A stretch of DNA of 61,058 nucleotides, counting the filler. It is 8 parts of 8 records of this genome, joined end to end, with 100 filler letters (N's around TTAATTAATTAA, not from the genome) between each part and the next. Parts side by side here need not be neighbours in the genome. Positions count along the whole stretch, not along the records: positions 14,128 to 21,997 come from SRR31147125_49432; 7 more parts are not named here. One strand, written 5' to 3'. Position numbers and translations under genes: made by a program. Shown here one piece after another: positions 14,028 to 59,648 of the stretch. Within the stretch, counting starts at the first letter, position 1. Every line of letters starts with the position of its first letter. The notes under the pieces were generated by a model. It searched no databases, had not been told where the DNA came from, and was given only the letters and a program-made list of their open reading frames with translations.

Positions 14028-14127
14028 NNNNNNNNNNNNNNNNNNNNNNNNNNNNNNNNNNNNNNNNNNNNTTAATTAATTAANNNNNNNNNNNNNNNNN
14101 NNNNNNNNNNNNNNNNNNNNNNNNNNN
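14028..14127. other. Artificial contig spacer
   Basis: N44-TTAATTAATTAA-N44. Confidence 0.98.
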
Positions 14128-15004
14128 GGGGAGATTGCTGTGTCCTTGATCCAGTTTCCCGTAGGAGCCTTCCTGCATGTCCCGTTCATCATGATGGACG
14201 AATTTGGATATGGCTACGGTGGGATCACGAGGTGTCCATCCCCACCCTCCTGATCTGCTTCCTCTTTAGTATACAAAGATGTGGCGGCATACGGCTGGGG
14301 GTATCTCATCGTGTCCATCATTTGGTTCATAATCTTCACGGATTGTTGTATCTATTGGATCCACTACGGGCTGCATGTGCCCCCTTTCTATGCATGGTTC
14401 CACAAGACCCACCACAGGTACGGTGGTTTGGAGAGGAGCGGGATGGATTCTGTGCAGCGGACTGAGTGGGAAATAGCTTTCGAGAGACAACCCCATTCGC
14501 TTCGCATGCCTTCCACCCTGTGGATGGATTTCTTCAGGTGCATGGCAAACATTGGATCTGAGGATGCCTGTGCATGACTGACAGACGTGCTTGGACAAAG
14601 GGATTCCCCTATCACCTCTTCATCAAACTCTTCCCCATGCATCATATTGTATGGGTTCTCATGCTTGGATTTGTGAATTTATGGACTGTGAACATTCATG
14701 ATGTACGTGTGTGTGTGTGCGTGTGCGTGTGGGGGGCAGGGGCGTCAGATCTGAACGAGAAACCAGCAAGTGAAAGCATGTCCGGGATCGATTGTCAATG
14801 GAGCACGTCATCACACGCAACACCACATTTACTTCAAGTATAACTATGGACAGTACTTCACCGTACGCCTCTGATCGCTTGCTCTGTTCCTGTTTCCTCT
14901 TCTCCTCTGATCCATCCGGTCGTTTCCAGTTCTGGGACAAGGTTATGGGAACATATCTGGAACCAGGAGCGAAGCCTCCTTCAACGACAGAGAAGATCCA
15001 GTAG
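14128..15004 (+). CDS. ERG3: Sterol C5-desaturase / lathosterol oxidase (fatty acid hydroxylase superfamily), 5' truncated, multi-exon
   Basis: His boxes IFTDCCIYWIHYGLH, HKTHH, SHAFHP, NIHD, NGARHHTQHHIYFKYNYGQYFT|FWDKVMGTY. Confidence 0.85.
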
Positions 15005-15150
15005 AAGGGACTTCGCCACAGTCCTCTCATAAATGACTTCTTGAGTCAGATCCTCCCAGTCATCCCCCGGGCACCGCGTCCGCCCCCGCCGCTCCTACGC
15101 GGCACCTCTCATGTTGGTTTCTTGAGTGTAGCGTGTACTCAGACCGTCCC

Positions 15151-18100
15151 ATGGCGACGTTCACCCGTCTGAAGGTTGGGTTGGGTTGGGTTGGATCCCT
15201 GTTGCGTCTCACGAGGAAGTAGACCCTTACAGGATGGGTAAAGGATGTGGTCCGAAAGCGTGGGGTGTCGGTTGTGGACCTGGCGGCTGACATGCGGGAC
15301 GGCCATGTCCTCCTTACCCTTGTACGTGTGTTGTATGGGACCGCCTACGTTCTGGTGCTGAATCACTGTATCCAGATTGAGGTTTTGAGTGGCGAGGGCG
15401 TAGGCAAGTACGAAAAGGTAACATGCCGCCACGGTGGGGTTGCCACGACAACCCGTGACGTGACGTGACGTAACACACACACACCCAACGCCTCATCAGC
15501 ATCCCAAAACACGACACCGTAAGATCTCCAATGTCGAGCTTGGTCTCACAAAGCTCAACGAGTTGGGTGTTGTGTGTCCCCACCTCCAAGCAAGCGGTGC
15601 GGACTTGTTGGTGATGAGGATGGGGATGATGATGATGATAGACGGGAGGATTGATTCTGCAGAAGTCGTCGATGGTGATCTAAATGCCATTCTGACTTTG
15701 GTGTGGGAACTTGTCCACGTCTTTGCATTAGAATCGAACACAGAGGTGAGGAGGGAATAACCGCCATTGTACCGCTCATCACTATGGATGGTATGGATTA
15801 GGCCAGTCTCACGACTGCACTGCAAAACCGACTACAGGACTACGCTGGACTCCATGTCCAGAATTTCTCCACAAGGTTTCTAAGCGGTTGGGTGCTTCGT
15901 CTCTCTCTGTCTTTCTCACACAAATCCACTAGCTTTCGTGACGGGCTGGTATTTTGTGCTCTCGTTCATCAACGTCGTCCTGATCTTATTGATTTCAATG
16001 CGCTTGATCAAGTGCGTGTGGCATGTGGTGGGCATACTCAACCAATGCACGGTGTGATGGAAAGGGTGAAAGTGCTGAGAACTTGAGTATTGCATTCAAC
16101 CTGGCCGAGAAGCATCTGGGCGTTCCACGACTCCTGGATCCGACCGATCTCATGATGGATACCCCCGACGAGAAGAGGTATTCGATGATTGGCCACACTC
16201 CCTCTCACTCTCATACACACACACACACACACACACGCACAGTGTGTTGACCTACCTATCCTACTTTGGCATACATCCTCCTCCTTCTCATCCTTATCCT
16301 GAATCGCCCGGGGAGACTCAGGCTCAATGGCACAAGAGGAGCGATCAGCTGGCTGCAAGGCTCGCTGAAATGGAGGCCGCCCTCAAGCAGGAACGACAAG
16401 CGCGAAGCGAGGCCGAGGATACATTGGCCTCTCTTGAGAAGGGCCTCACCGCTTTACAGGCGTCCCTGGCTGCTCAAGGACAAGAGAAACGCGAACTCCA
16501 TGCACTGCGAGACCGGGCCGTGAGTGAATTGGAAGATCTGAGGAAACGGTTGTGTGAGGAAGAAGAGAAGCGTGTCTCCATAGAGAAACAACTCGAGTCT
16601 ATACGTGTAGAGGGAGCTAAGGACACACAGGATGTGGAAAATCGGCTTAGCAAGGCACTGGAACAGTTGCATCTCGCAAGGACGGAGGTAGAAGATGTAC
16701 GTGCAGCACGAGATGTTCAAGACCAAAATCTTGCAGTGTCCAACGATGCCCGTGCGGCACTTAATGGTGCTCTGGAACGTATGGAGCATGACATGACAGA
16801 ATTGGATGCTGTGGTGGTTCGTGACAAAAAGGAAAAGGAAGCGCTCCTCCGAGAGAAGATGGCACTGGAAGAAGAATTGCGAGACGCACGGGAAACTATC
16901 GAAACCAACCAAGGCCGTCACGAGCAAATACGAACGGATGAGACAGAAAGAGTGCACAAAGAAGAACATCTTCAGGCCGTTCTTGCACAAGCGCGTGAAA
17001 CAGAACAGCGGCTGACCGATGACATGACCTCGGCACGACAAGAAATTGAATCCTTACAAGAACGTGTTACCCAGTTACGAGAAGAGCTAGAGAAGGCAAA
17101 TCAGGACGTTGAACACGAAAGAGCCAATGGACGGGAGGCGCTGAAAGGTCTGCAGATGCAGTTCGAGAAAGTAGAATCCGAACGAAAAGCACTGGAGGAC
17201 AAGGTCGGCAACCTTCAAGAGATTCTTTCTACGCGTGATGAATGGGAGGAGGAAGTGAAGGCCCTTGTCAACCAGACAGCGAAGCGTGTCCAGGATGAGA
17301 GGGCTCGCTGGGCGACGGATCGAGCCTCCTTGGACAGAGAACGAGTACAGTTACGTGAGAGCGTAGTTCTGCACCAAGCTCATGGGGAGGAGCTGGAACG
17401 AGAAAAGAGGGAGTGGGAGAGTGAACGTCGATGCCTCATAGAGGATTTAGAAGCACTTCGCCATATTGTTGATGAAGCTGATCGAGAACGTGAGGCGTGG
17501 GAGAGCGAGCGTGTGCAACTGGAAGAAGACCAGAGGGCCGCTCGCACAGCGCAACTTCAAGCCTGGGAATTGGAACGGGAGCGTTTGTGTCAAGAGAGAG
17601 AACAGTTCGAGGCCGACACGATGAAGCAACAAATAGAAGAGGGAGAGGCCTTACACCGAGAGTTGACTGATCTGCGTGAGAATCTGGAGGCCCGAGACGT
17701 GCGCATAGATGAATTGGATGCTATGGTACAGCATGCAGCGGCAGAGAAGGCCCTGGCTAGTGCGACGGAAGAACAGCTTCGACAAGAACTATCCGAGGCA
17801 ATGGAACATCGATCAACGATGGAGGTTCAAATCAACGAACTCACAGGCAGCTACGATACGGCCCGAATGGACCACGATGCAGCCCAGAAGATGGTTTCTG
17901 CATGCAATGTGGAGATCGCCAAACTGCGGGGTGATATAGCTGCACTGGAGTTGGAGCGTACCGAGATAAAACGGGCAACAGGTTCAGAGGAAGATCAGGA
18001 CTCTCTCAAGGCCCAGTGTGCTGCACTGGAATCGCGTGTGGCAGATCTGGAGCGTGAACTGAGCGAATCCAGGCAAAGGATGTATGAGATGGAAAGTGTC

Positions 18101-20434
18101 ATGAGAAGCGCACAAGAGGAGGCACGCGTTCAACAAGAGGCCCGTGACACTGAGCGAAGTGTTGCTTCGCAAGCGAATCGCGTGTTGGAGGAGACACTCG
18201 AAGAGATGGGGTCTCAGACAGCTCGTGACAAGGAAGACCATGAACGAATCTATGCAAAATGGAGTGCTGAGAGTGTTGAATTGAGGGAGACGATAAAACG
18301 CCTGGAAGCTCAACTAGCAGTGGGTATGTTTGATCTCTTGTCGTGTATGGAAAGTTGACCTTACACCAACCACGTGGATGGCAGTGGCGCTTAGTCCTGA
18401 AGATCGCCTTGTGGAAGCGGAGCGCCGAGCCCGTGAGTCAGAGGCGCGTGTAGCTGCAATGGATAGTCAACGTGAAGAAATCGCCAAGGAGATGAAACGA
18501 CTCGAAGCGCATGCCAAGAAGATGGAGACACAACGACAGGAATTGGATGCCCAAGAATGGAAAATGGGAGAGGAAGTACAAGAATTGCGTAACGAGCTTG
18601 AACGGGAGGAGAGACGGCGTGTGACGGCCGAACGTGAATGTGGAAAGGCAACGAGGCACGTGGGATGAATGGATTGTTTCTTCTACGAAATGACTTTGCA
18701 TGGATGGATAGGGCTTGTGACCGCGGGCGGCAGACCGCTGAGGCGATTGATACCCTTAACGAAGCGTTGGGTGTGGTGCAGTTGCTTGAAGAATTGCTAG
18801 ATGAAGAGGCACGAGCGAATGGAATAGGAGCGGTGTGCCGTATGAATCCACAGAACTCTGGTTCTATCTAACTGCTTTGATTGATGTCATAGGATGTGGA
18901 ATGGCGTCGTAAGCGAATCGGTGAACTAATATGCGATCTCCAGTCACGCTGTGATGTGCGTTCCTGTTGCCGATTTGTATTGAAGTGATAGATTGCCTTG
19001 GTGTCGTAGTTGGAGAGGGAACTGGTATCAAAGGTTCATGAGGAAATCAAACAACAAGAAGATGAGTCTCAACACCTGCGCGAAGCGGAACCAGAGGTGA
19101 GTGCGTGGCGTGTGTATGTGTGTGCGTGTGATCTATGAACCATACGGCCAAGGGAACGGAAAGTGAGGAAGCAGCGGAAAGGGAAGTGGCTCGTGTGGAG
19201 GTGCGTGCAACAATGGAACACACACCACGCGTGTATTCATCTCTCGTGTGTAGAAGGAAATGGAAGTCGAGGAAACCTTGTGTGATCTTGAAGACCACCT
19301 TCGGCGTCGTACACTGGGTCTCTTGTACCTCGAGCGCGCATTGGAACGGGTACACACAGTTCCTGGTGATGGGGATGAATGCACTCTGACCCATTCCCGA
19401 ATAACAGGCACAGAATTCGAGAAAAAGACTTCAACGCATGGAATCACCCACTCCCGTTGATCCAGAGAAGACAGCAGAGAAGCGTGGTGCTGTGGTGATC
19501 GTAGCACCCAAGGACCTTACTGCAGTCTCAACGGATTCGGCCGTCCAACCTCAGCCCCAGCCCCAGCCTCAGCCTCAGCCTCAGCCTCAGCCTCAGCCCC
19601 AATCCCAACCCAAGCTTGTGCGCTCGCGGGCGCGTTCCTGTTCGTACTTCTCATACGCGTACAGAATGCAATGGGCACCAGCCGTGCCAGCAAGAGCATG
19701 GGCCAGCTGCTCACCTCTGCAGCCCCGAAGCCGCGTCCCAAAGTCGCTTCTAATTCGGCAGCCACACGAAAAGGCTCGGGTCCACTCACACAGCGATTGC
19801 GTGATCGCTCCAATTCTCCCAAGCCTACCTCTCCATCTACCCGACCTATGAGGCCCACGTCATCGAGCCCAGGACGTACCAAGTGCGTGAAAGAGATGGA
19901 GGTGTCGTGTACCTCACGCGGATACCCGTAGCCGGGATCAGGCGGGACCGGGGTTAACATTGACAGCTCTTGGTCTTCTTGCACGAAAGAGAGAGGGTGT
20001 TGATGCAGTAATGGAGGCGTTTCTTAAGCACCCAGCCGTTCAAGGTGTATTGAGTGGATCGGGAGCGCCGGTAAGCTGTGTGTGTGCGTGTGCGTGTGCG
20101 TGCAGATCCGTGATCCTGAGATTGAGGTACAGCCACTCGTACGCCTATCACCTGGGACGTATCAATATGCCGGAAAGAAGGTGTCTGTGACAATAGCCGG
20201 AGAGAATGTCCTGAGTATGTGGGAAGGAAGAGAAGGGAAGGAAGGAAACGTCCTCACCTCAGTTTCTGAATAGTTCGTAGTGGTTTGGGGGCTCCTGTGA
20301 AGTTTTTCGACTTTGTGTCGAGATTTCGAGGCGATCACGGGTCCCGTTCTCCGTACGTAGTCGTCCCCGGGATGGGGATGTTTGGCATGTCTTCTGATGG
20401 TTGTTCTCCGGGCAGTGCACCCAACGATCCATGA
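15151..20434 (+). CDS. Cytolinker: tandem CH1-CH2 actin-binding domain, long coiled coil, PQ/Ser-Pro linker and GAS2/GAR-like domain (roughly 1,400 aa, multi-exon)
   Basis: CH1: K|TLTGWV...[22 protein letters not shown]...[18 protein letters not shown]2: [29 protein letters not shown]...[23 protein letters not shown]...[14 protein letters not shown] 2.1-kb coiled-coil exon at about 16242-18323. C-terminus VDAVMEAFL...[40 protein letters not shown]. Confidence 0.8.
19546..19611 (+). repeat. (CAGCCY)n hexamer repeat encoding (QP)n
   Basis: [22 protein letters not shown] in frame within an exon of the cytolinker gene. Confidence 0.9.
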
Positions 20435-21814
20435 CTGCTTTCGTGATGCATGTGTATGTTGTTGATCTTGGCCTTCCACAAGGACTCGTTGTGCTTATCA
20501 GAGAATTGTGTGCCCACACGACTTTGTTCTCCCCCAAGGGGCCATCGTGGTCGTACAGATTCTTGGAGGGGATCAAACCATCCCATGCGGGCGCGTTCTA
20601 CACCCGTCCACGCGACCATGGTGCCATTGTCCGTACAAAGATGAAGGGGAGGACACACAAGCCGCATATCGAATGCGTTAGCCATGGCCTCCATCCGCAT
20701 CCGGACCACACGATTCGACGCCACACCCCCACAAAGTACCATGGCGTTCACCCTTGGTTCCATCTTCTTGCACCATCGCATAGCCCGTCGTGCCTTGGCT
20801 TCCAGCTGGGTACAATAGATGAGATGCATACAACGAACCCACAGCGCCTCTCTCACCTGAAGAATAACGGACTCCTGGAACGCTGCTGCAACATCCGCAC
20901 GTTCTTGATCCGTCAGTGCATGGATCGAAGAACGACGGGAACAGATGGAACGTATCTAACCCCCATTCTCAATCGTCATGTTTGTCGTCGTCGTCGTTGT
21001 GTACGAACCTTGAGGATCGTCGCATTTTTGAGACCGGCGAAGCTGAAATCACACCCAGGAACTCGTAGCATCGCCACAGGGAGGGGATACTGATGGGCGT
21101 GGCCCTGTTGTGCGAGCGCCTCCAGAGCTTTCCCCCTCCTCCTTTCCATTCGAGATCCAACAGTCGTGCCACCTTATCGAAGGCCTCTCCCACTGAATCG
21201 TCCACAGTGGAACCAAGAAGAACAAAATCCCCAACACCACGAGCCACCGCAAGCAGGCAGTGACCTCCCGATATCAATAGGGTTAGAAAGGGAAAGCTCA
21301 GATCACCCGGATCGAGCCGAGCCACAAGGGCGTGGGCTTCGAGGTGATTGACTGCAACGAAGGGTTTGCGATAGGTTCGAGCAATATCGCACGCGTGTGC
21401 TGTCCCCACCGACAGGCACCCACGGAGCCCAGGCCCAACTGTCGCCGCCACAACGTCAATGTCGTGGAGAGAGACCTTCGCTGTGTTCAACGCTTCCTCG
21501 AGCATGAGAGGCATGTTTTTGTGGTGTTCCCGAGCGGCTACGTCTGGTTTGATACCCATGAAGGGAGCGTGTTGCTGTCTGACGTTGGCACCATCCCACA
21601 CGCACACCCGATGCACACGTACAGCATATTGTGATGCTAAGGATGCTCCCAGAATTTGACCCTCCGACTTCACTACGGCCACGCCTGTGTCGTCACACGA
21701 CGTTTCCATCCCCAACACCACAAAAGGTCGAGAGAAGAACGAAGCCATGGAACGTAGAAGGCAGGGACGACAAGAGAGGAGGAGAGGGATCCTACGACGA
21801 GGACCCGTCCACAT
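20335..21814 (-). CDS. OSGEPL1: tRNA N6-adenosine threonylcarbamoyltransferase, mitochondrial type (Qri7/OSGEPL1/TsaD)
   Basis: VLGMETSCDDTG, VAATVGPGL, VNHLEAHAL, LLISGGHC, DDSVGEAFDKVAR, DFSFAGLK, GGVASN, LCTDNGTMVAW, PRWPL. Arg-rich, acid-free N-terminal extension. One homopolymer frameshift near 21130; 3' end uncertain. Confidence 0.9.
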
Positions 21815-21997
21815 GATCGATCAAGAACGTGAGAGGAAAGGGAGGATTTCCCTTTCCTCTTTCCTGTTTCCTGTTTCTTGTTTCCTGTGTTGTCTTGGCA
21901 AGGAAGGATGGATCTAGAAGAGCATGTTCAGTGCATTCACGACGCTCGGTGTCGGATTGCACCGTATGTGAACCGTACGCCTGTAATGTCGTCTCGT

Positions 21998-22097
21998 NNN
22001 NNNNNNNNNNNNNNNNNNNNNNNNNNNNNNNNNNNNNNNNNTTAATTAATTAANNNNNNNNNNNNNNNNNNNNNNNNNNNNNNNNNNNNNNNNNNNN
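21998..22097. other. Artificial contig spacer (eukaryote/bacteria boundary)
   Basis: N44-TTAATTAATTAA-N44; composition switches to AT-rich, intron-free genes. Confidence 0.98.
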
Positions 22098-28234: not shown

Positions 28235-28334
28235 NNNNNNNNNNNNNNNNNNNNNNNNNNNNNNNNNNNNNNNNNNNNTTAATTAATTAANNNNNNNNNN
28301 NNNNNNNNNNNNNNNNNNNNNNNNNNNNNNNNNN
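28235..28334. other. Artificial contig spacer
   Basis: N44-TTAATTAATTAA-N44. Confidence 0.98.
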
Positions 28335-34811: not shown

Positions 34812-34911
34812 NNNNNNNNNNNNNNNNNNNNNNNNNNNNNNNNNNNNNNNNNNNNTTAATTAATTAANNNNNNNNNNNNNNNNNNNNNNNNNNNNNNNNN
34901 NNNNNNNNNNN
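34812..34911. other. Artificial contig spacer
   Basis: N44-TTAATTAATTAA-N44. Confidence 0.98.
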
Positions 34912-39974: not shown

Positions 39975-40074
39975 NNNNNNNNNNNNNNNNNNNNNNNNNN
40001 NNNNNNNNNNNNNNNNNNTTAATTAATTAANNNNNNNNNNNNNNNNNNNNNNNNNNNNNNNNNNNNNNNNNNNN
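39975..40074. other. Artificial contig spacer
   Basis: N44-TTAATTAATTAA-N44. Confidence 0.98.
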
Positions 40075-41786: not shown

Positions 41787-42057
41787 ACGTTGGGAAATTG
41801 AAAATTTAAGTTTTTTTCTCATTATTATCTAAAAAACTGCAACTTGAGACTTAATCCAGAGCTTCTATAATCATTAAATACCACATATACCACTATTTTA
41901 TGATTTGTGATTTAATGCATTTCTCCAAACTTGACAAAGAAGTAAAAAAAGTAGAATTTCGATGCGAATTAATAAATTTTAGGTATTGATTGCTGAAATT
42001 CCAGTGTCTAGAAATAATTAAAGTTATTGTTCACTTTTAAAACAGAGGTTGTGCGTA

Positions 42058-45000
42058 ATGAAACAATTTTTTTCTGTGTTCCTCGTTGTTTTTTTTGTAG
42101 CTTCAGGCTGTGCTGATTCCGGAAATTCCGAGAATAATGGTGCTACAGATGGAGATGTAACTGAAAACACCCAATCGGATGGAGATTCTTCTGAAAATGA
42201 AGCTCCTGATGCGGATAAAGATACGACTATATTCGTTGATGGAGATGGGGAAGAAAATGAAGTTGATTCGGTGGAATACGACAACACTGAAACCGACACC
42301 AGCGAATCCGTGGATGAATCTGACAGTGAGATTACTGAAAATGTGGAGTCGGAGTTGACTGATGGAGATTCGACTGAAGAGGAAAGCGATGTCGAAAAGT
42401 CCTGTGAACCATATACCAGAACCTGTTTCGGCAATTCGGTTTTTGTTTGTAACAAATTTGGAACCGGATATGATCCTCCAATAAACTGTGGAACAGACCA
42501 GTTTTGCCAAAGTGGTGTTTGCCAGGATCATCTTTGTACTCCAGATGAAGTAGCCTGTCATGATAATACTTCATACAAAGTTTGTATGGCAAATGGTGCA
42601 GGATACGGAGATATACTCTCTTGTGGAGCAGGTTTTTATTGCCGTCTTGGTGAATGCAAGCAAATGGTTTGTGAACCGGATGAAAAAGGATGTCTTGGCA
42701 ATGCATGGTCTCTATGCGCCTCGGATGGTTCCGGATGGGGAACTACTACTTCATGTACAAACGATCAATTCTGCAAAGATGGTTCTTGTCTTGCTCAGGT
42801 TTGTACTCCTGGAGAGTGGAGTTGTGACGGAACTAACGCAAGACGTAAGTGTAAAACCGATGGTTCCGGCCTGGAAGATCCTGTAGATTGTGGAAGCGAT
42901 AAATACTGTGAAGGTGGATTATGCAAAACTCAGGTTTGTAAACCATTATCAACTACCTGTGAAGGCAATGGCGTAAAAACATGCAATGCTCTTGGTTCGT
43001 CGTATGACCAGGCAGTGCCTTGTGAAAGCGGGAAGCTCTGTATAGAAGGTGTTTGTCTTGATACTATGTGTACGCCGGGAACGAAAGTTTGCGGTGGCGA
43101 CAGCGTTTTGACCTGTCTTTCTACCGGTGATGGTTACAGTACTCCTGTAGCGTGTGGAGATGGAAAATACTGTTATGAAGGTAGTTGTCTTGGCCATGTT
43201 TGCACACCGAACGAAAGAACCTGTGACACCGGTAAGAAAAAGACTTGCAATGAAAACGGTTCGGCATGGAATGATCCTGTTGCATGTAAAGTGGAACAGT
43301 ATTGTGATGGTGGATATTGCTATGACCATAAATGTGAACCGGGGAGTACGATTTGTGAAGACAATGATTCAGTAAAAACGTGCAAGTCAGATGGTTCTGG
43401 ATATGAAATTCCTGTCGGATGCGGAACGGATAAAGTTTGTGTAACCGACGCTTGCATAGATACGAAATGCGTTCCATCAACGCTTGATTGTGAAGGTAAT
43501 TCCGTAGTTGTGTGTAATGCAACCGGTACCGGATATAATACTCCGACTCCCTGTGGAAATGACAAATACTGTGATTCCGGAGTTTGTTATCAGCAGGTAT
43601 GCACTCCTGATGTCTCGAAATGTGAACAAAACTCAGTTGCAACTTGTGATTCCATCGGTTCGGCGTGGGGTGATCCTGTTTCATGCGGAGCGGAATATTA
43701 TTGCAGTAGCGGTGCATGTCATCCATGGGCTTGTACACCAGATGCAAAGGAATGTAGCGGTGATTTTGCCTTTCATGTCTGCGAAGCGGATGGTTCCGAT
43801 TGGGGTGGTGATGAGCAATGCGGGTCTGGCAAATACTGCGATCAAGGAAGTTGCAAGGCTCAGGCTTGTACTCCGGGTGAAAGCGAATGTATTACCGATA
43901 CGAGTTTGAGAGAGTGTAATTCTCAAGGTTCTGCATGGCTTATAGATGAAGATTGCCTAGGGAATTACGTATGCGAGGAGGGAAAATGTTACGATCCTTC
44001 CGATCTGCCGGATACAGATATTCAGGTAAATTTTGTTTCTCCCGCTCCGGGCGAAACGGTTCAACTGACTCAAGGTGAAGATACGAGTGTTTCAGTAAAT
44101 GCATTTATGACTGGTGGATCCATAACTTCCGTTGAGTTCTATGTGGATGATGAGCTTCAGGATACCGATACCGAACTTCCATATCAATTCGATTTTGCTG
44201 TTCCTGCATCGGCAGATACCGGCACGAAATACGAGCTTTTGGCAAAAGCTCACGGCAATAATGGCAGATTCAATAACAGCCAGCCGGTATACGTGGAAGT
44301 AAGAAACGATCCTCCTGTGGCCGATTTCACGGCAGTTGTCACGGGTCCCGGTGTTGTGGAAGTAAACGCCGGAGCAAGCAGTGACAGAGAAAGTGATACA
44401 GCAAATCTTGAGGTCAGATGGGACTGGGATAATGATGATGTCTTTGATACCGATTGGACTACAACAAAGACAGACCAGCATACTTATTCCACAATGGGAA
44501 CGCACACCATTCAGGTGGAAGTGAAGGACGAGGATAACCAGACAGATTCTACTACAAGAACCGTAAATTTCTCCACTGTGATGGATGTATATGGAGAAGT
44601 GACTTCCACTACTTGGTATGGAACAGTTAATGTCCGTGGTGATACGTGGGTACCTGCTGGTGAAACACTAACGATTTCAGCTGGAACAAACGTCATTTTC
44701 CTTGCCGTTGATAATAGTCCGATGGACGGAATAGGGGATTACGATCTGGTTATCAATGGAAGTATCGTTGTAGAAGGTACTGCCGCAAACCCTGTAACCT
44801 TTACCGCCTCGGCAGGAAATACCGTGGCCGATAGCTGGAACATGGTTAAGCTTTCTTCCACTTCATCGGGTAACTTCTTTGAATACGCAATTTTCGAGTA
44901 TGCGCATACCGGTCTCGATATGAGTGCGCCAGCGGCTATCAGTGATTGTGAATTCCGATTCAACAATGTTGGTATAAAAGCAACCAATACATCGGAAGAT

Positions 45001-47278
45001 ATAATGATAATCGATACCACGGTTAGGGATTCGCTTAATCAGGGAATTTATCTAAATGGTGCAGAGGTGGATACAACAGGAATGTTGGTTTACGACAATG
45101 GATCTATTGGTATCGATTTGAAAAACGGTGAAGGTTCCAAGTTTACGGATTGTATTGTTTCTACGAATGGTACTCATGGTTTCAAATTAACAGGTGATAG
45201 TGCTGATATCAGCGAATGCGAAATTTCCCAAAATAGCGAAACCGGTATCTATTATCTTGGCGAAAGCGGTGGAACTGTCACGCATTGCGAGATAAAAGAC
45301 AATAAGCATGAGGGTGTTCGCTCAAAATATTCAGGTAGCTACAGTCCCGACCCGACTATCAACTGGAACAACATTTATAACAATGGTTCTGTTTCAAGCT
45401 TTATCATTGAGCATCTGAGCAACTCGGCAACGACAACAGGTTCCTATGACAGCGGATACAAAACCGGTACTCAATTCAATACTCCTTCAGGAGAAACGAT
45501 TCTTTACGTAAAAGAAGGTTATTCGGAGTATGATTCTTCATACAGTAACTATATAAGGGGATATATCAGAAAATCAAATGGTAATACTGGCATAATTTCT
45601 CATGACACTGGATCAAGTGCAAAATGGAAGGATATTTCTGGTAATAGTGCGACTGGGTTGATTCCTGTCGTCTATGATAACAAATCCAGCTATTATGGTA
45701 ATCAGACAATATATAATGTAGCGTATATGGGAAGTGTTCCAAAGCAGATTTCCGTGCTTAGTCTTGGTTCTAAAGTAGATGCCCGTTTTAACTATTTCGG
45801 TGCTTGGCCGGATGTTTTGTCGGTAATTAGCTATAGCAGCACATCGCATCTTGATATTCAGGGATTTGTCGGTGTCAAGTTTGATGATAATTGGGATAAG
45901 GGTCCATATTATGGTGGTGTTAACCTTGAATCGGATGAAACATGGACTGGTGACATTTATATTACAGGTAATGTGACACTAGATACCGGTGTTACCTTGA
46001 CTATTGCCAAAAATACGACAGTACATTTTATCGGTACTGACCAGAACCGTGACAATATCGGTGACTGGAGACTTGATCAAGCTGAAGGAACTCTTGATGT
46101 CAACGGTGGTATCGGAGAAGAGGTTACTTTCACAATGCATGGTGATATTCCATCCGGTGGAGGCTATCAGTATGTTGGTGGAATTGGAACAGGATCAGCA
46201 ACTATCGAGAATGCAGTTTTGGAAGAAGGTAAAAACGGTCTGTTCTTCCATAACGGAAGTGCAGATTTAAATCGTGTCACAGTTAAAAACTGCCATCAGG
46301 ATGGAGTTGTTTTGAAATCATCTGCATCCGCAACCATTATCTCGTTGACTGTAAAAGACAATGCCAGTTCAGGTATCTTCGTTAATAACTCTGGTGAAAC
46401 TAGTATGGACTACATCGTAAGCATGAACAATGGAGAATGGGGCATAAAAATGACTTCTGCCACAAACGCCTCCAATGCCTTGACAAATAGTACTATCACT
46501 CAGAACACCGAAGGTGGTATCATCCTTACTGGTTCAAAGTGCAATATCGGACACAATAACATTACCTATAACGGATATGGAATCAGGTATATCGGCGATT
46601 CTTCAGGAACGGTTGAATACAATAATATCGCCACGAATGATCTTGACGGAATATACCTGACATATACGAGTAGTTCCGAGCCGTCTCCTGTGATAAATAA
46701 CAATAACATCGAGGAAAACGCTCTTGACTATGATTCCGATAGTGGAACATATGGCGGAATCGGTGGATTTGCTGACTATATCGATCTTTCTGCGGTTACT
46801 GATGGATCCTATGATAGCGGATATGAAAATTCAACTACATACAATACCAATGGACCGAAAATTGAATATCTTCAGGCAGGTTATTCCGAGTATGATTCAA
46901 GCTACAGCAACTATGTCAGAGGCTATTTGATGGCGAATTCTTCAGCTTACAAAGACTGGGATACTGGAAGTAGTCAGAAATGGTATGATGTAATATCTGA
47001 AGGCTTTACCAGTGTTTACGCCAGAGTGTATGACAACAAAGAGTAGTTATTGGGGGAACGTGACAATAAAGACCGTTTTCTATCATAAACCGGTTGATTC
47101 AAGCAATCCGCTTCCGGTAGAGTTGAGTGCTGTTTTGCCTTCTTCTACGCTAAACGCAAATGGTAACTGGTGGGGAGTGGATGTTGGGATAACTGACAGG
47201 ATTGCTCAGGCTGTTCCGGGCTCCGTAGACATTACTGGTTCCACAAGTAATCGTGTGCCGGGTTGTGGTCCGCAATAG
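42058..47278 (+). CDS. Giant lipoprotein: acidic linker, 12 six-Cys repeats, Ig-like and PKD domains, two right-handed beta-helix modules (frameshift near 47040)
   Basis: Lipobox-like VASG-C; ITSVEFYVD..PYQFDF (Big-like); NDPPVADF...VRWDWDND...HTY...IQVEVKD (PKD); PbH1-like GI.L repeats. Removing one A at 47038-47040 gives DNKSSYWGN, matching the internal copy DNKSSYYGN. Confidence 0.85.
42400..43998 (+). repeat. Twelve tandem 44-45-aa cysteine-rich repeats
   Basis: Unit C-x-P-x4-C-x7,8-C-x3-G-x2-[WY]-x5-C-x5-C-x2-G-x-C, counted 12 times; divergent at the DNA level. Confidence 0.9.
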
Positions 47279-47362: not shown

Positions 47363-47462
47363 NNNNNNNNNNNNNNNNNNNNNNNNNNNNNNNNNNNNNN
47401 NNNNNNTTAATTAATTAANNNNNNNNNNNNNNNNNNNNNNNNNNNNNNNNNNNNNNNNNNNN
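47363..47462. other. Artificial contig spacer
   Basis: N44-TTAATTAATTAA-N44. Confidence 0.98.
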
Positions 47463-57077: not shown

Positions 57078-59548
57078 TTAATTTAAAAGATCCTGTGCAG
57101 CGAGCACCAGAAACATAAAATTGGTTGCCCCTCCCCCATAACATACTCTGACTGTTGCCAGAAATAGGGCCATATTTTCAATTCGGGGAAATCAGGACGA
57201 ATGAGTGCAGTACCGGAAACAGAACCCCCAGGTATATATGACCAGTCGTCACGATTCACGCCATAGGCAACTATTATGGATTCGGCACCAACACCTGAGA
57301 CAAACGAAGACGAATTCATACCCGGATGCGAACCAAGAATAAAATTCAGGGCATTGAACATGGGTTCTGCAGAAAAAATATCCGGAAAAGCACGGTGTAA
57401 AAAGTACATTTTGACACCAAATTCCTGTATTCCCCATCCCGCACCCCAAATATCGGGGGTATATTTCACCCCAAATGGTGTTTCTTTTACCATTTCTTCA
57501 ATCTGCAAAGCATATTTTTCCAAAGCGGCACTGAAAGCATGACTAAATTCTTCATTCCGGATAATATTCACTATCCTGCTGACAGATAGGGCGGTCCTGT
57601 TTATATTATTTATGATTTGTTCCTGTCTTTTAACAAGGAATTCAGAATATTTCTTATCATTGGTTGCAAGAAACAATTCAACAGACGTATCCACAAGCCC
57701 GGTATTTTCTCTTTTAGAATGAATCTCCCACAGTTTTTTTGCGATTTCCAGACATTCATTAGCCAATTGGTCATTGTACTCTTTTAAAGCACGGGATCCT
57801 GTTGCCAGACAGGCTGCAACGAGTAATTCCCTGGACGGATTTTCCTCTGTAAACACCCACCGATCGTCCATTTTACAAGTCATGTTACTATTATCGGAAA
57901 AATTTGAAGCATCATAAACAATGTTATTTGTCATAACAGATCCATCGCCTAAGAGCGTGTACTGCCTTAGATCAGAGCAGATAATGCCCCGATAAAGGCG
58001 TCCCAAAGCTTTATATCCAGCTACTATGGATAGTGCTCCATGTTCTATCTGTTGCAGGATATCTTGTTTGCCATCCGGCCGGTGCATTTCAACGAGTTTA
58101 TTATTTTGATCTATGGTGGTCACATCATAATCAGCACCAAAAAGCTCCCTGATCCAGCCGAGAATTTGCACTGTTTTCGCCTGTGATTCCACCCGTAAAT
58201 CATAATCCCCGGCATCATGCCAACCGCCAACGTTCAACCCTGGAACGTTTTCATAAGGTTTATACGTTGTCAATGTCGAAGGACCTTGCATATAACCATC
58301 AAAATGGTTCAGGTTAGTCGGTGCCATCAAGGCGTCATCGTCATGACACAGTCCATGCCACACCTTGTACCGATCGTTAACTCGCATATGACACATCTGC
58401 ACTGGCAGAAAATATTCCAGGGTGGGCTGCCAGACATGGCGATCATAAACGGTTTTGTTAATCTGAAATGGAACAAACAATTTATTACCATATTTTAATC
58501 TATAAAGTCCCGAATTTTTAACTTCCGAGAAATCGAATTGCAAATAATTGTAGCGTAAAAAAGCTCCCCATTGTTCTGGCTTGGATGTTTTTACTTCCTC
58601 AATACCTCCATTCTCAGATATTCTGCAAAGAGTCATTTCAGAAACGATCTTTTCTCTCTTGTCCAACTCGACCACAGCTGTTTTCTTTTGGTCTGGATGA
58701 TATCCAACTTGCGAAACATGAATCACAGGATCGTATTTCCACTCTTTTGTAAAACCCGGCGTGATGATCATTTCAACGGCATTTAAAAGTGTGCCTTTTT
58801 TTACCCGAGTCCGAACAATAAACCAGCCATTGTTATGCTCCCCTCGCCCGTCAATGAGCTCGATATCACTGTTGACTGCCTGAAAAGTGATTTTCTCATT
58901 TGGATTCTCTGGTACAACGATCAGCTTTTTTCCTCTGGCCAGGGATTCTGTTTGTAATTTATTTTCCTGATCGTAATAAACTGGTCCATTGACCTGTCTG
59001 GGAAAAATACCGAACTCCTCATCCATATAATAGGTTTTACTAAAATAAAATCCGGGAAAAAGCTCTAAATTAAAACCTACCTTGCCATACCATTCCTCTG
59101 GTAAGGGCTTTTCAAGATCGACAGATACCCGAAACGAGTGTCCTTCCGGTTTTACTCTGACGGTGTATTTAAAGGCTAGATCTGGATACAAGATTGGATT
59201 AAATCCTTTTCTGTTCTTTGAGGAATCAGGATACCACAAATTTGCCCGTATTTCATTATTGTCACGATCTACTTCACGTTTGCCCATTTTAGGAACGGGC
59301 TGCCATTGTCCGGGGGCCGGTTCTAGTCTTAAATCACCATTTGCGACCACACGAACACCATTTTGCACAATCGTCACACCACCCTGATGCCCATCCGGAT
59401 AAAAATCCTGAAATACCATGACGTTAAGTCCTGGTTGTTCAAAATATTCCTGGTCATTAATTACATATGTTTCTTCTGACTTTGCTGTCAACAAAACAGA
59501 CAAAATGAGTATAAGAAACGTGACAATTTTTGCATGAATATAGTTCAT
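57078..59548 (-). CDS. Glycoside hydrolase family 9 with signal peptide and N-terminal accessory/Ig domains
   Basis: IHVSQVGYHPDQKKTAV (CelD_N), GGWHDAGDY, ALNFILGSHP...SFVSGVG. Restoring one G near 57135 gives EYVMGGGATNFMFLVLAAQDLLN*. Confidence 0.9.
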
Positions 59549-59648
59549 GATTCACCCTCGAAAAAAATTATTTCTATCTTATATCGTTAAAGGAAATAAT
59601 CTCGATTATTGAAAACAGGCATCAGGAAAGCGTACAATATTATTTAAA

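Follow-up and report, generated by a model that had tools for sequence, protein, structure and literature searches.

A tandem-CH, coiled-coil gene of a microbial eukaryote with a candidate divergent, cysteine-less GAR-like C-terminus

We analysed a 61,058-nt stretch of DNA (the window) in which an intron-rich gene runs along the plus strand from position 15151 to 20434. The gene under study sits on a 7.9-kb eukaryotic contig (SRR31147125_49432; window 14128-21997; GC ~0.52). Its predicted product combines a tandem CH head, a long coiled-coil rod, a linker with a Gln-Pro repeat and a basic, Ser/Pro-rich stretch, and a C-terminal segment that resembles the GAR domain of GAS2 and the spectraplakins. 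To our knowledge, actin-microtubule cross-linkers that pair CH and GAR modules have been studied nearly only in animals.

The gene model was built by setting junctions by hand from the ATG at 15151, the first ATG downstream of an in-frame stop, and then checking them by script. Its 20 exons form a single open frame of 1381 aa that ends with a TGA at 20432-20434. All 19 introns are GT-AG and measure 47-82 nt; the donors follow the pattern GT[GA]nG, with G at position +5 in 14 of the 19, and the acceptor reads YAG in 17. Retention of 12 of the 19 introns would bring in an in-frame stop or a frame shift. The head is spread over nine exons with introns of 53-82 nt, which carry an unbroken tandem CH region into the 2081-nt exon 9, and eleven more exons lead to the TGA. 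An earlier note, made from the letters of this DNA, had proposed GT-AG splicing in one frame across this interval, with some exon boundaries ambiguous. Exactly those ends were recovered, and the ambiguity recurred at the start of exon 19, which may lie at 20133 (a 62-nt intron, a typical length here) or at 20106 (a 35-nt intron and nine extra residues). Synonymous-codon scores favoured the model frame for exons 9-19, the signal being weak, as is codon bias in this organism; exon 17, for example, scored 0.044 against -0.109 for its read-through frame. An automatic splice-chain search trained on rod codons missed short exons and overran the real stop, and was discarded for the hand-checked junctions. 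A GC donor for intron 10 was also dropped, a canonical GT donor with another acceptor being preferred. Several of the short introns contain (CA)n/(GT)n-type microsatellites (16205-16240, 19105-19130 and 20075-20105).

The first CH domain (CH1, 15151-15745) is encoded by exons 1-5 (15151-15166, 15233-15321, 15376-15417, 15500-15566 and 15642-15745), and the second (CH2, 15802-16273) by exons 6-8 (15802-15875, 15933-16011 and 16065-16177) together with the start of exon 9, from 16243. Pfam CH matched the CH1 open reading frames (ORFs) at E 5.5e-4 (exons 2-3, profile 6-46) and 0.08 (exons 4-5, profile 83-107), and CH2 at E 1.2e-6 (profile 28-56) and 5.9e-5 (profile 60-94). One of these four CH-exon ORFs passed the Pfam CH gathering score unaided, and the pieces lie in the correct order, CH1 then CH2. 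Against PDB, the exon 8 ORF had its best match in the CH2 domain of beta-spectrin (E 1.4e-8), followed by plectin, alpha-actinins (the Entamoeba and fission-yeast forms among them), utrophin and dystrophin, always at the CH2 position. The exon 2 ORF matched residues ~10-50 of the actin-binding domains (ABDs) of alpha-actinin-1, plectin and MACF1. Judged by these matches, the head is a type-1/type-2 tandem ABD of the spectrin superfamily. A match of the 98-aa ORF of CH1 exons 4-5 to a bacterial tandem-repeat protein (P0121), made of 11 weak stretches, was set aside as spurious, the query being too short for that library.

The rod (16330-19349) spans ~890 aa, residues 232-1124, and is encoded by the rest of exon 9 (to 18323) and by exons 10-15 (18385-18659, 18734-18832, 18893-18955, 19010-19096, 19153-19200 and 19254-19349). 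It is rich in E, R, A, L and Q, and contains two prolines. Its heptad score in the best register was 3.48, compared with 1.95 ± 0.12 for 200 shuffles, and the windowed power at period 3.5 was 0.73, compared with 0.17 ± 0.035 for 200 shuffles. Pfam returned weak coiled-coil-type matches only; at E ≤ 1, no Spectrin, SH3 or EF-hand family was found on the ORFs of the 693-aa exon or of exons 10, 11 and 15 (exons 12-14 were not scanned alone).

A predicted disordered linker (19408-19882) follows the rod. Exon 16 (19408-19617) ends in a (QP)n tract at ~19547-19611, and exon 17 (19665-19882) is basic and Ser/Pro-rich. The linker contains 25 Pro and 29 Ser+Thr and has a net charge of +13; past the QP run there are 16 K+R and 2 D+E. 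Most of the differences among the (QP)n repeats affect the third codon position in the QP frame, a weak sign of coding. No SxIP motif ([ST]x[IL]P) occurs anywhere in the 1381-aa model. Up to this point the architecture agrees with that first described for the locus, namely an alpha-actinin/dystonin-type tandem CH domain, a heptad-rich rod of more than 800 aa without spectrin repeats, and a (QP)n and basic Ser/Pro linker; the lack of spectrin repeats was borne out on the scanned ORFs.

The last three exons encode the GAR-like segment (19932-20355). Exon 18 (19932-20070) would supply an alpha1-like helix, exon 19 (to 20214) a beta1-beta3-like part, and the first part of exon 20 (from 20274) a beta4-beta5-alpha2-like part; a non-conserved tail and the stop codon TGA occupy 20356-20434. 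The C-terminal peptide pieces quoted in the earlier note were located in exons 18, 19 and 20. The GAR domain is a zinc-binding alpha/beta fold, and GAS2 grips the tubulin intradimer groove via beta3-beta4-beta5-alpha2, as described in PMC12084551.

As references for this domain, metagenome contigs were scanned for an 8-residue GAR motif. This gave 117 loci, 113 of them with the motif and 89 going on with a GAR-like helix, which comprise spectraplakin-type, GAS2-type, two fungal types and other cysteine-less types. All 16 loci sampled passed the gathering score of Pfam GAS2 (PF02187, threshold 21.3 bits), the cysteine-less types with 27-75 bits, and the spectraplakin-type loci L029 and L031 carry an EF-hand together with GAS2. 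From these loci we drew 46 distinct sequences with at least 58 upstream residues, reduced to 42 for Smith-Waterman comparison by removing L008, L024, L079 and L109, whose upstream part was an exon edge or whose match was spurious; 12 full-length canonical and cysteine-less GAR domains, picked by eye, for hhalign; and an alignment of 16 GAR sequences (A1), used for unspliced exons.

Some features of the reference loci are recorded here in their own right. Environmental GAR sequences without zinc-site cysteines that pass Pfam GAS2 include L009, L113, L045, L010, L013, L018, L027, L039, L073 and L076. In the ascomycete-type group, which corresponds to an ESM Atlas cluster of proteins of ~420 aa, a Ser/Pro/Arg-rich stretch leads into the domain and an H-H-G-R-R end follows it. 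In a second fungal-looking type (L007, L036, L043, L047, L049, L068, L071, L072, L075, L082, L103 and L115), an apparent intron or stop comes right after the hairpin motif, within ~5 residues of the Trp; the alpha2 helix would therefore sit in another exon.

With hhalign, the spliced 100-aa tail matched the 12 GAR domains at a probability of 40-43% (P 2.5-2.9e-4, score 25.0-25.4) over 46 columns, from beta1 through the end of alpha2. Shuffled tails scored 10.4 ± 2.2, with a maximum of 17.9 and 0 of 300 at the tail score, and the reversed tail scored 10.4. Other 100-aa windows of the same protein reached at most 13.4 (0/24 at the tail score), and natural 100-aa segments of homologues of TsaD, the product of the adjoining convergent gene, at most 16.7 (0/382). 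In Smith-Waterman comparisons, 19 of the 42 GAR sequences gave z ≥ 3, the best being L073, of fungal type (z 7.1, 13/37 identical), L084 (z 7.09) and L018 (z 5.7); the 23 with z < 3 included most of the spectraplakin-type and basidiomycete-type sequences. Exon 19 alone aligned to columns 24-48 of the A1 profile with P 4.5e-4; exons 19 and 20 are colinear on the GAR profile, and exon 19 is the only one of the two that is significant. MAFFT --add placed exon 18 under helix alpha1 and the remainder in full register, and the local alignment to home-made GAR hidden Markov models (HMMs) returned the register guessed by the earlier reader. Joining exons 19 and 20 restores the beta4 motif with an arginine equivalent to GAS2 R252, mutation of which weakens microtubule binding ~70-fold (PMC12084551). 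The GAR-like reading of the C-terminus thus gains statistical support in one consistent register.

Several departures from known GAR domains weigh against this reading. Pfam at E ≤ 1 found no family, GAS2 included, on the ORFs of the tail exons taken singly. Home-made GAR HMMs scored the spliced tail at 0.2-3.7 bits, a level reached by 1-8 of 500 shuffles; these models put the tail at a disadvantage, since all the sequences used to train them contain the motif by which they were fetched. Exon 20 alone was not significant against A1 (P 0.12, columns 64-75). Only 4 of the 10 invariant A1 columns are identical in the tail. Positions tested by mutation in GAS2 are R242, R252, the G254-G256 hairpin, W257 and K266, according to PMC12084551. 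In the tail the beta4 Arg is retained, the hairpin reads G-L-G, with Leu for the middle Gly, Pro (or Phe, if an insertion is allowed for) stands in place of the Trp, and Thr in place of the invariant beta3 Arg. Zinc cysteines are missing as well, with 0 Cys in the aligned 90 residues. Such cysteines are not universal among GAR domains: the cysteine-less L009, L113, L045, L010, L013, L018 and L027 pass Pfam GAS2. In addition, phmmer found 0 matches to exon 19 in PDB, and the last exon gave no usable match in the ESM Atlas. The terminal GAR-like domain proposed in the earlier note stands as a profile and pairwise similarity in one register, but not as a Pfam GAS2 match on the exons or as a domain with the family's hallmarks. 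Since the beta3 Arg, the full hairpin, the Trp and the cysteines are missing, microtubule binding by the GAR-like module alone is doubtful; the adjacent basic linker could contribute to it.

A second set of difficulties concerns the gene as a whole. Codon usage lends the tail exons weak support, and exon 20 gives a flat signal. Over its last 97 nt the coding sequence overlaps the open frame of the convergent TsaD gene, tail to tail, and given this overlap the tail of one or the other may be untranslated. Searches for proteins homologous to the 693-aa rod exon, among sequences of near and longer lengths, gave none at E ≤ 1e-3, a negative that is weakened by crowding of coiled-coil words. Among genome contigs the rod exon had 8 pattern matches, of which 0 were confirmed, and among viral contigs none. 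Neither the rod nor the complete protein had a relative in any of the protein or contig searches, and the exon structure is therefore without comparative support.

Weighing these points, we consider that there is about an even chance that the locus is one intron-rich nuclear gene of a microbial eukaryote, encoding a tandem CH head, a coiled-coil rod, a QP/basic linker and, at the C-terminus, a small domain that is related to GAR but divergent and free of cysteines. The domains are recognised in the sequence and the splice model is consistent throughout; on this reading the tail would belong to the same mRNA and adopt a GAR fold.

A first alternative, which we consider unlikely, divides the locus into two genes: an ABD-coiled-coil cross-linker of the cortexillin or interaptin kind ending at ~19460, and a small Ser/Pro-rich, GAR-only gene whose start codon would lie in exon 16 or 17. 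What connects the rod to the tail is one predicted intron (intron 15, 19350-19407) with an atypical donor, GTACAC; reading exon 15 through this intron leads to a stop at 19458-19460 and a rod-only protein, and an ATG within exon 16 or within exon 17 could start the second gene. The genome is compact, with a spacer of 146 nt to the upstream gene, and GAS2-only proteins of ~420 aa exist in Ascomycota (the ESM Atlas cluster), fungal-type GAR loci also having a Ser/Pro/Arg-rich stretch ahead of the GAR core. However, intron 15 has a typical length (58 nt), and well-supported introns of the same gene also have odd donors (GTCTGA, GTTTCT and GTATTC). By synonymous codon use the model frame of exon 16 is the best of the three, the third-position bias of the (QP)n variants falls in that same frame, and a second gene initiated at the ATG of exon 16 would overlap the first gene's read-through stop. 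Uniform intron statistics and these frame signals favour one gene over two at the level of sequence.

A further alternative, which we also regard as improbable, keeps the single gene and denies homology to its C-terminus. The tail would be an unrelated small beta-rich module or a mostly disordered segment, its resemblance to GAR a matter of convergence or chance, and the protein a dimeric actin-bundling coiled-coil protein. The silence of Pfam GAS2 on the tail exons, home-made HMM scores near zero, a modest hhalign probability, the loss of the GGG-W hairpin, beta3 Arg and zinc ligands, and the lack of PDB or ESM Atlas matches to single tail exons are all as expected on this account. It is countered by the identical register obtained from four methods (HMM local alignment, hhalign, Smith-Waterman and MAFFT --add), by an hhalign score far outside both shuffled and natural controls, and by the colinearity of three exons on alpha1, beta1-3 and beta4-alpha2; cysteine-less sequences, moreover, do pass the Pfam GAS2 threshold. 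That the locus is no working gene at all, either a pseudogene or an assembly chimera held open by a permissive splice model, is very improbable: the contig is short, unplaced and part of a mixed assembly, and the rod is without a detected homologue, but the 2.1-kb exon stays open in a single frame and is strongly ordered in heptads, the CH domains are intact and retain the conserved motifs of their core, intron statistics are even along the whole gene, and the neighbouring FA hydroxylase and TsaD/Qri7 genes are intact too.

As a single gene with a GAR-like end, the locus can be compared with several known systems. With the metazoan spectraplakins (MACF1/ACF7, dystonin, Shot and VAB-10), the predicted protein shares a tandem CH1-CH2 of the spectrin/plectin/actinin class, a long alpha-helical spacer, and a GAR-type module near the C-terminus beside a basic, Ser-rich region. 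It differs in having a plain heptad coiled coil, with no plakin domain, spectrin repeats or EF-hand pair; Pfam found no EF-hand family ahead of the GAR-like domain on the ORFs covering 19405-20431. The basic region here precedes the GAR-like module, whereas that of spectraplakins follows it, and here it comes without SxIP; the GAR-like domain is also without the zinc cysteines and the GGG-W hairpin. The product is ~1.4 thousand residues long, whereas spectraplakins exceed 5 thousand. The description "spectraplakin-like" given to this protein at the outset is accordingly apt for the architecture as described, but does not extend to a spectrin or plakin rod, EF-hands or an SxIP tail, which are absent, nor to demonstrable Pfam GAS2 membership.

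Outside animals, PMC9145010 reports GAS2 domains in unicellular opisthokonts, Fungi, Amoebozoa and the ciliate Stylonychia, and GAS2L-type CH-GAS2 proteins, whose single CH forms its own clade, in Amoebozoa, Fungi and choanoflagellates. In the same text, CH-GAS2 proteins stand at the base of Amorphea, and "intermediate CH/SR/GAS2 forms" are noted for Fungi. With non-animal CH+GAS2 proteins and fungal intermediates published (PMC9145010), the earlier statement that tandem CH plus GAR defines metazoan spectraplakins proves too narrow. GAS2, GAS2-like and non-animal CH-GAS2 proteins share with the predicted protein an actin-binding CH and a GAR-type module in one chain; theirs is a single CH (PMC9145010), whereas here a tandem CH1-CH2 of the actinin/spectrin class is present. 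The present protein is further distinguished from the GAS2/GAS2-like group by its ~890-aa coiled coil and by the ~1050 residues that separate head and tail; GAS2 dimerises by means other than such a coiled coil (PMC12084551).

The closest published architecture is that of the fungal "CH/SR/GAS2" intermediates, non-metazoan proteins with CH, a helical rod and GAS2, a comparison that relies on one sentence of PMC9145010; the rod here is without spectrin-repeat signal. At the level of the domain, the best pairwise matches of the tail are fungal cysteine-less GAR sequences (L010, L013, L018, L073 and others, and the Ascomycota ESM Atlas cluster). Shared features are a G-E-N turn before beta4, the aromatic/aliphatic pattern of alpha2, an H-G-x-R end and a Ser/Pro-rich upstream stretch. 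The fungal sequences, in contrast to the tail, keep the invariant hairpin motif and pass the Pfam GAS2 gathering score, and the Ascomycota Atlas proteins, with ~420 aa and GAS2 as their sole Pfam family, have no CH head or long rod.

Cortexillin, interaptin and alpha-actinin share the tandem CH head and a dimerising helical rod, and the PDB matches of the head include actinin-like ABDs of Entamoeba and fission yeast. The C-termini of these proteins (a PIP2-binding tail, a membrane anchor or EF-hands) are unlike the tail here. With alpha-actinin the ABD is held in common, whereas its spectrin repeats and EF-hands were not found here by Pfam. A search of the open-access literature found no description of a protist protein with a tandem ABD, coiled coil and GAR domain.

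If the single-gene reading is correct, the rod would form a parallel dimer and so place two actin-binding heads at one end, and two modules, each of basic linker plus GAR-like domain, would lie at the opposite end, where they could bind to the acidic surface of microtubules. Such a protein might then bundle or cross-link F-actin and possibly link actin to microtubules, and it plausibly works like a small dimeric ABD+GAR cross-linker. More tentatively, and in our view improbably, a lineage without a close sequenced relative may have assembled a minimal cytolinker of spectraplakin-like design, or retained it from an ancestor early in eukaryote history; its tandem CH head would be of the spectrin class, a dimerising coiled coil would take the place of spectrin repeats, the GAR domain would be zinc-free and the tubulin-binding hairpin remodelled. 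Were this true, ABD+GAR proteins would have linked actin to microtubules for longer, or the linkage would have been reinvented more often, than a view centred on animals allows, and the GAR fold would tolerate losing its zinc site and GGG-W hairpin together. A protein in which a plain coiled coil separates a true tandem ABD from a GAR-like end without zinc would amount to a simpler natural design of the CH+GAR linker, useful for asking which GAR features microtubule binding needs and how the spectraplakin architecture arose.

On the same contig, the gene is preceded by an intron-bearing gene of the fatty-acid hydroxylase/sterol desaturase type on the plus strand (14128-15004; Pfam FA_hydroxylase, E 2.9e-7), the end of which, at ~15004, lies those 146 nt before the ATG of the CH gene. 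On the minus strand, the convergent gene at 20338-21820 encodes a mitochondrial-type TsaD/Qri7. The nearest relatives of its exon, from oomycetes, early-diverging fungi, a xanthophyte and unnamed records, are 45-54% identical; with relatives no closer than this, the host is therefore without a close relative in the protein collection. In the last TsaD ORF the homologues stop near residue 140-152 (~20500), and the frame stays open to 20338.

The window itself is not one molecule but separate contigs chained by seven N44-TTAATTAATTAA-N44 linkers (8588-8687, 14028-14127, 21998-22097, 28235-28334, 34812-34911, 39975-40074 and 47363-47462). No Rfam family was matched in the window. The presence of both eukaryotic and bacterial pieces marks a mixed assembly, and the adjoining pieces are therefore uninformative on the CH gene. 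Pieces up to 21997 look eukaryotic, with GC ~0.52 and many microsatellites. Those beyond 22098 have GC 0.32-0.48 and long, densely packed ORFs with bacterial families, among them Beta_helix/NosD/Big_7 families at 42022-47046 and a GH9 cellulase at 57083-59551.

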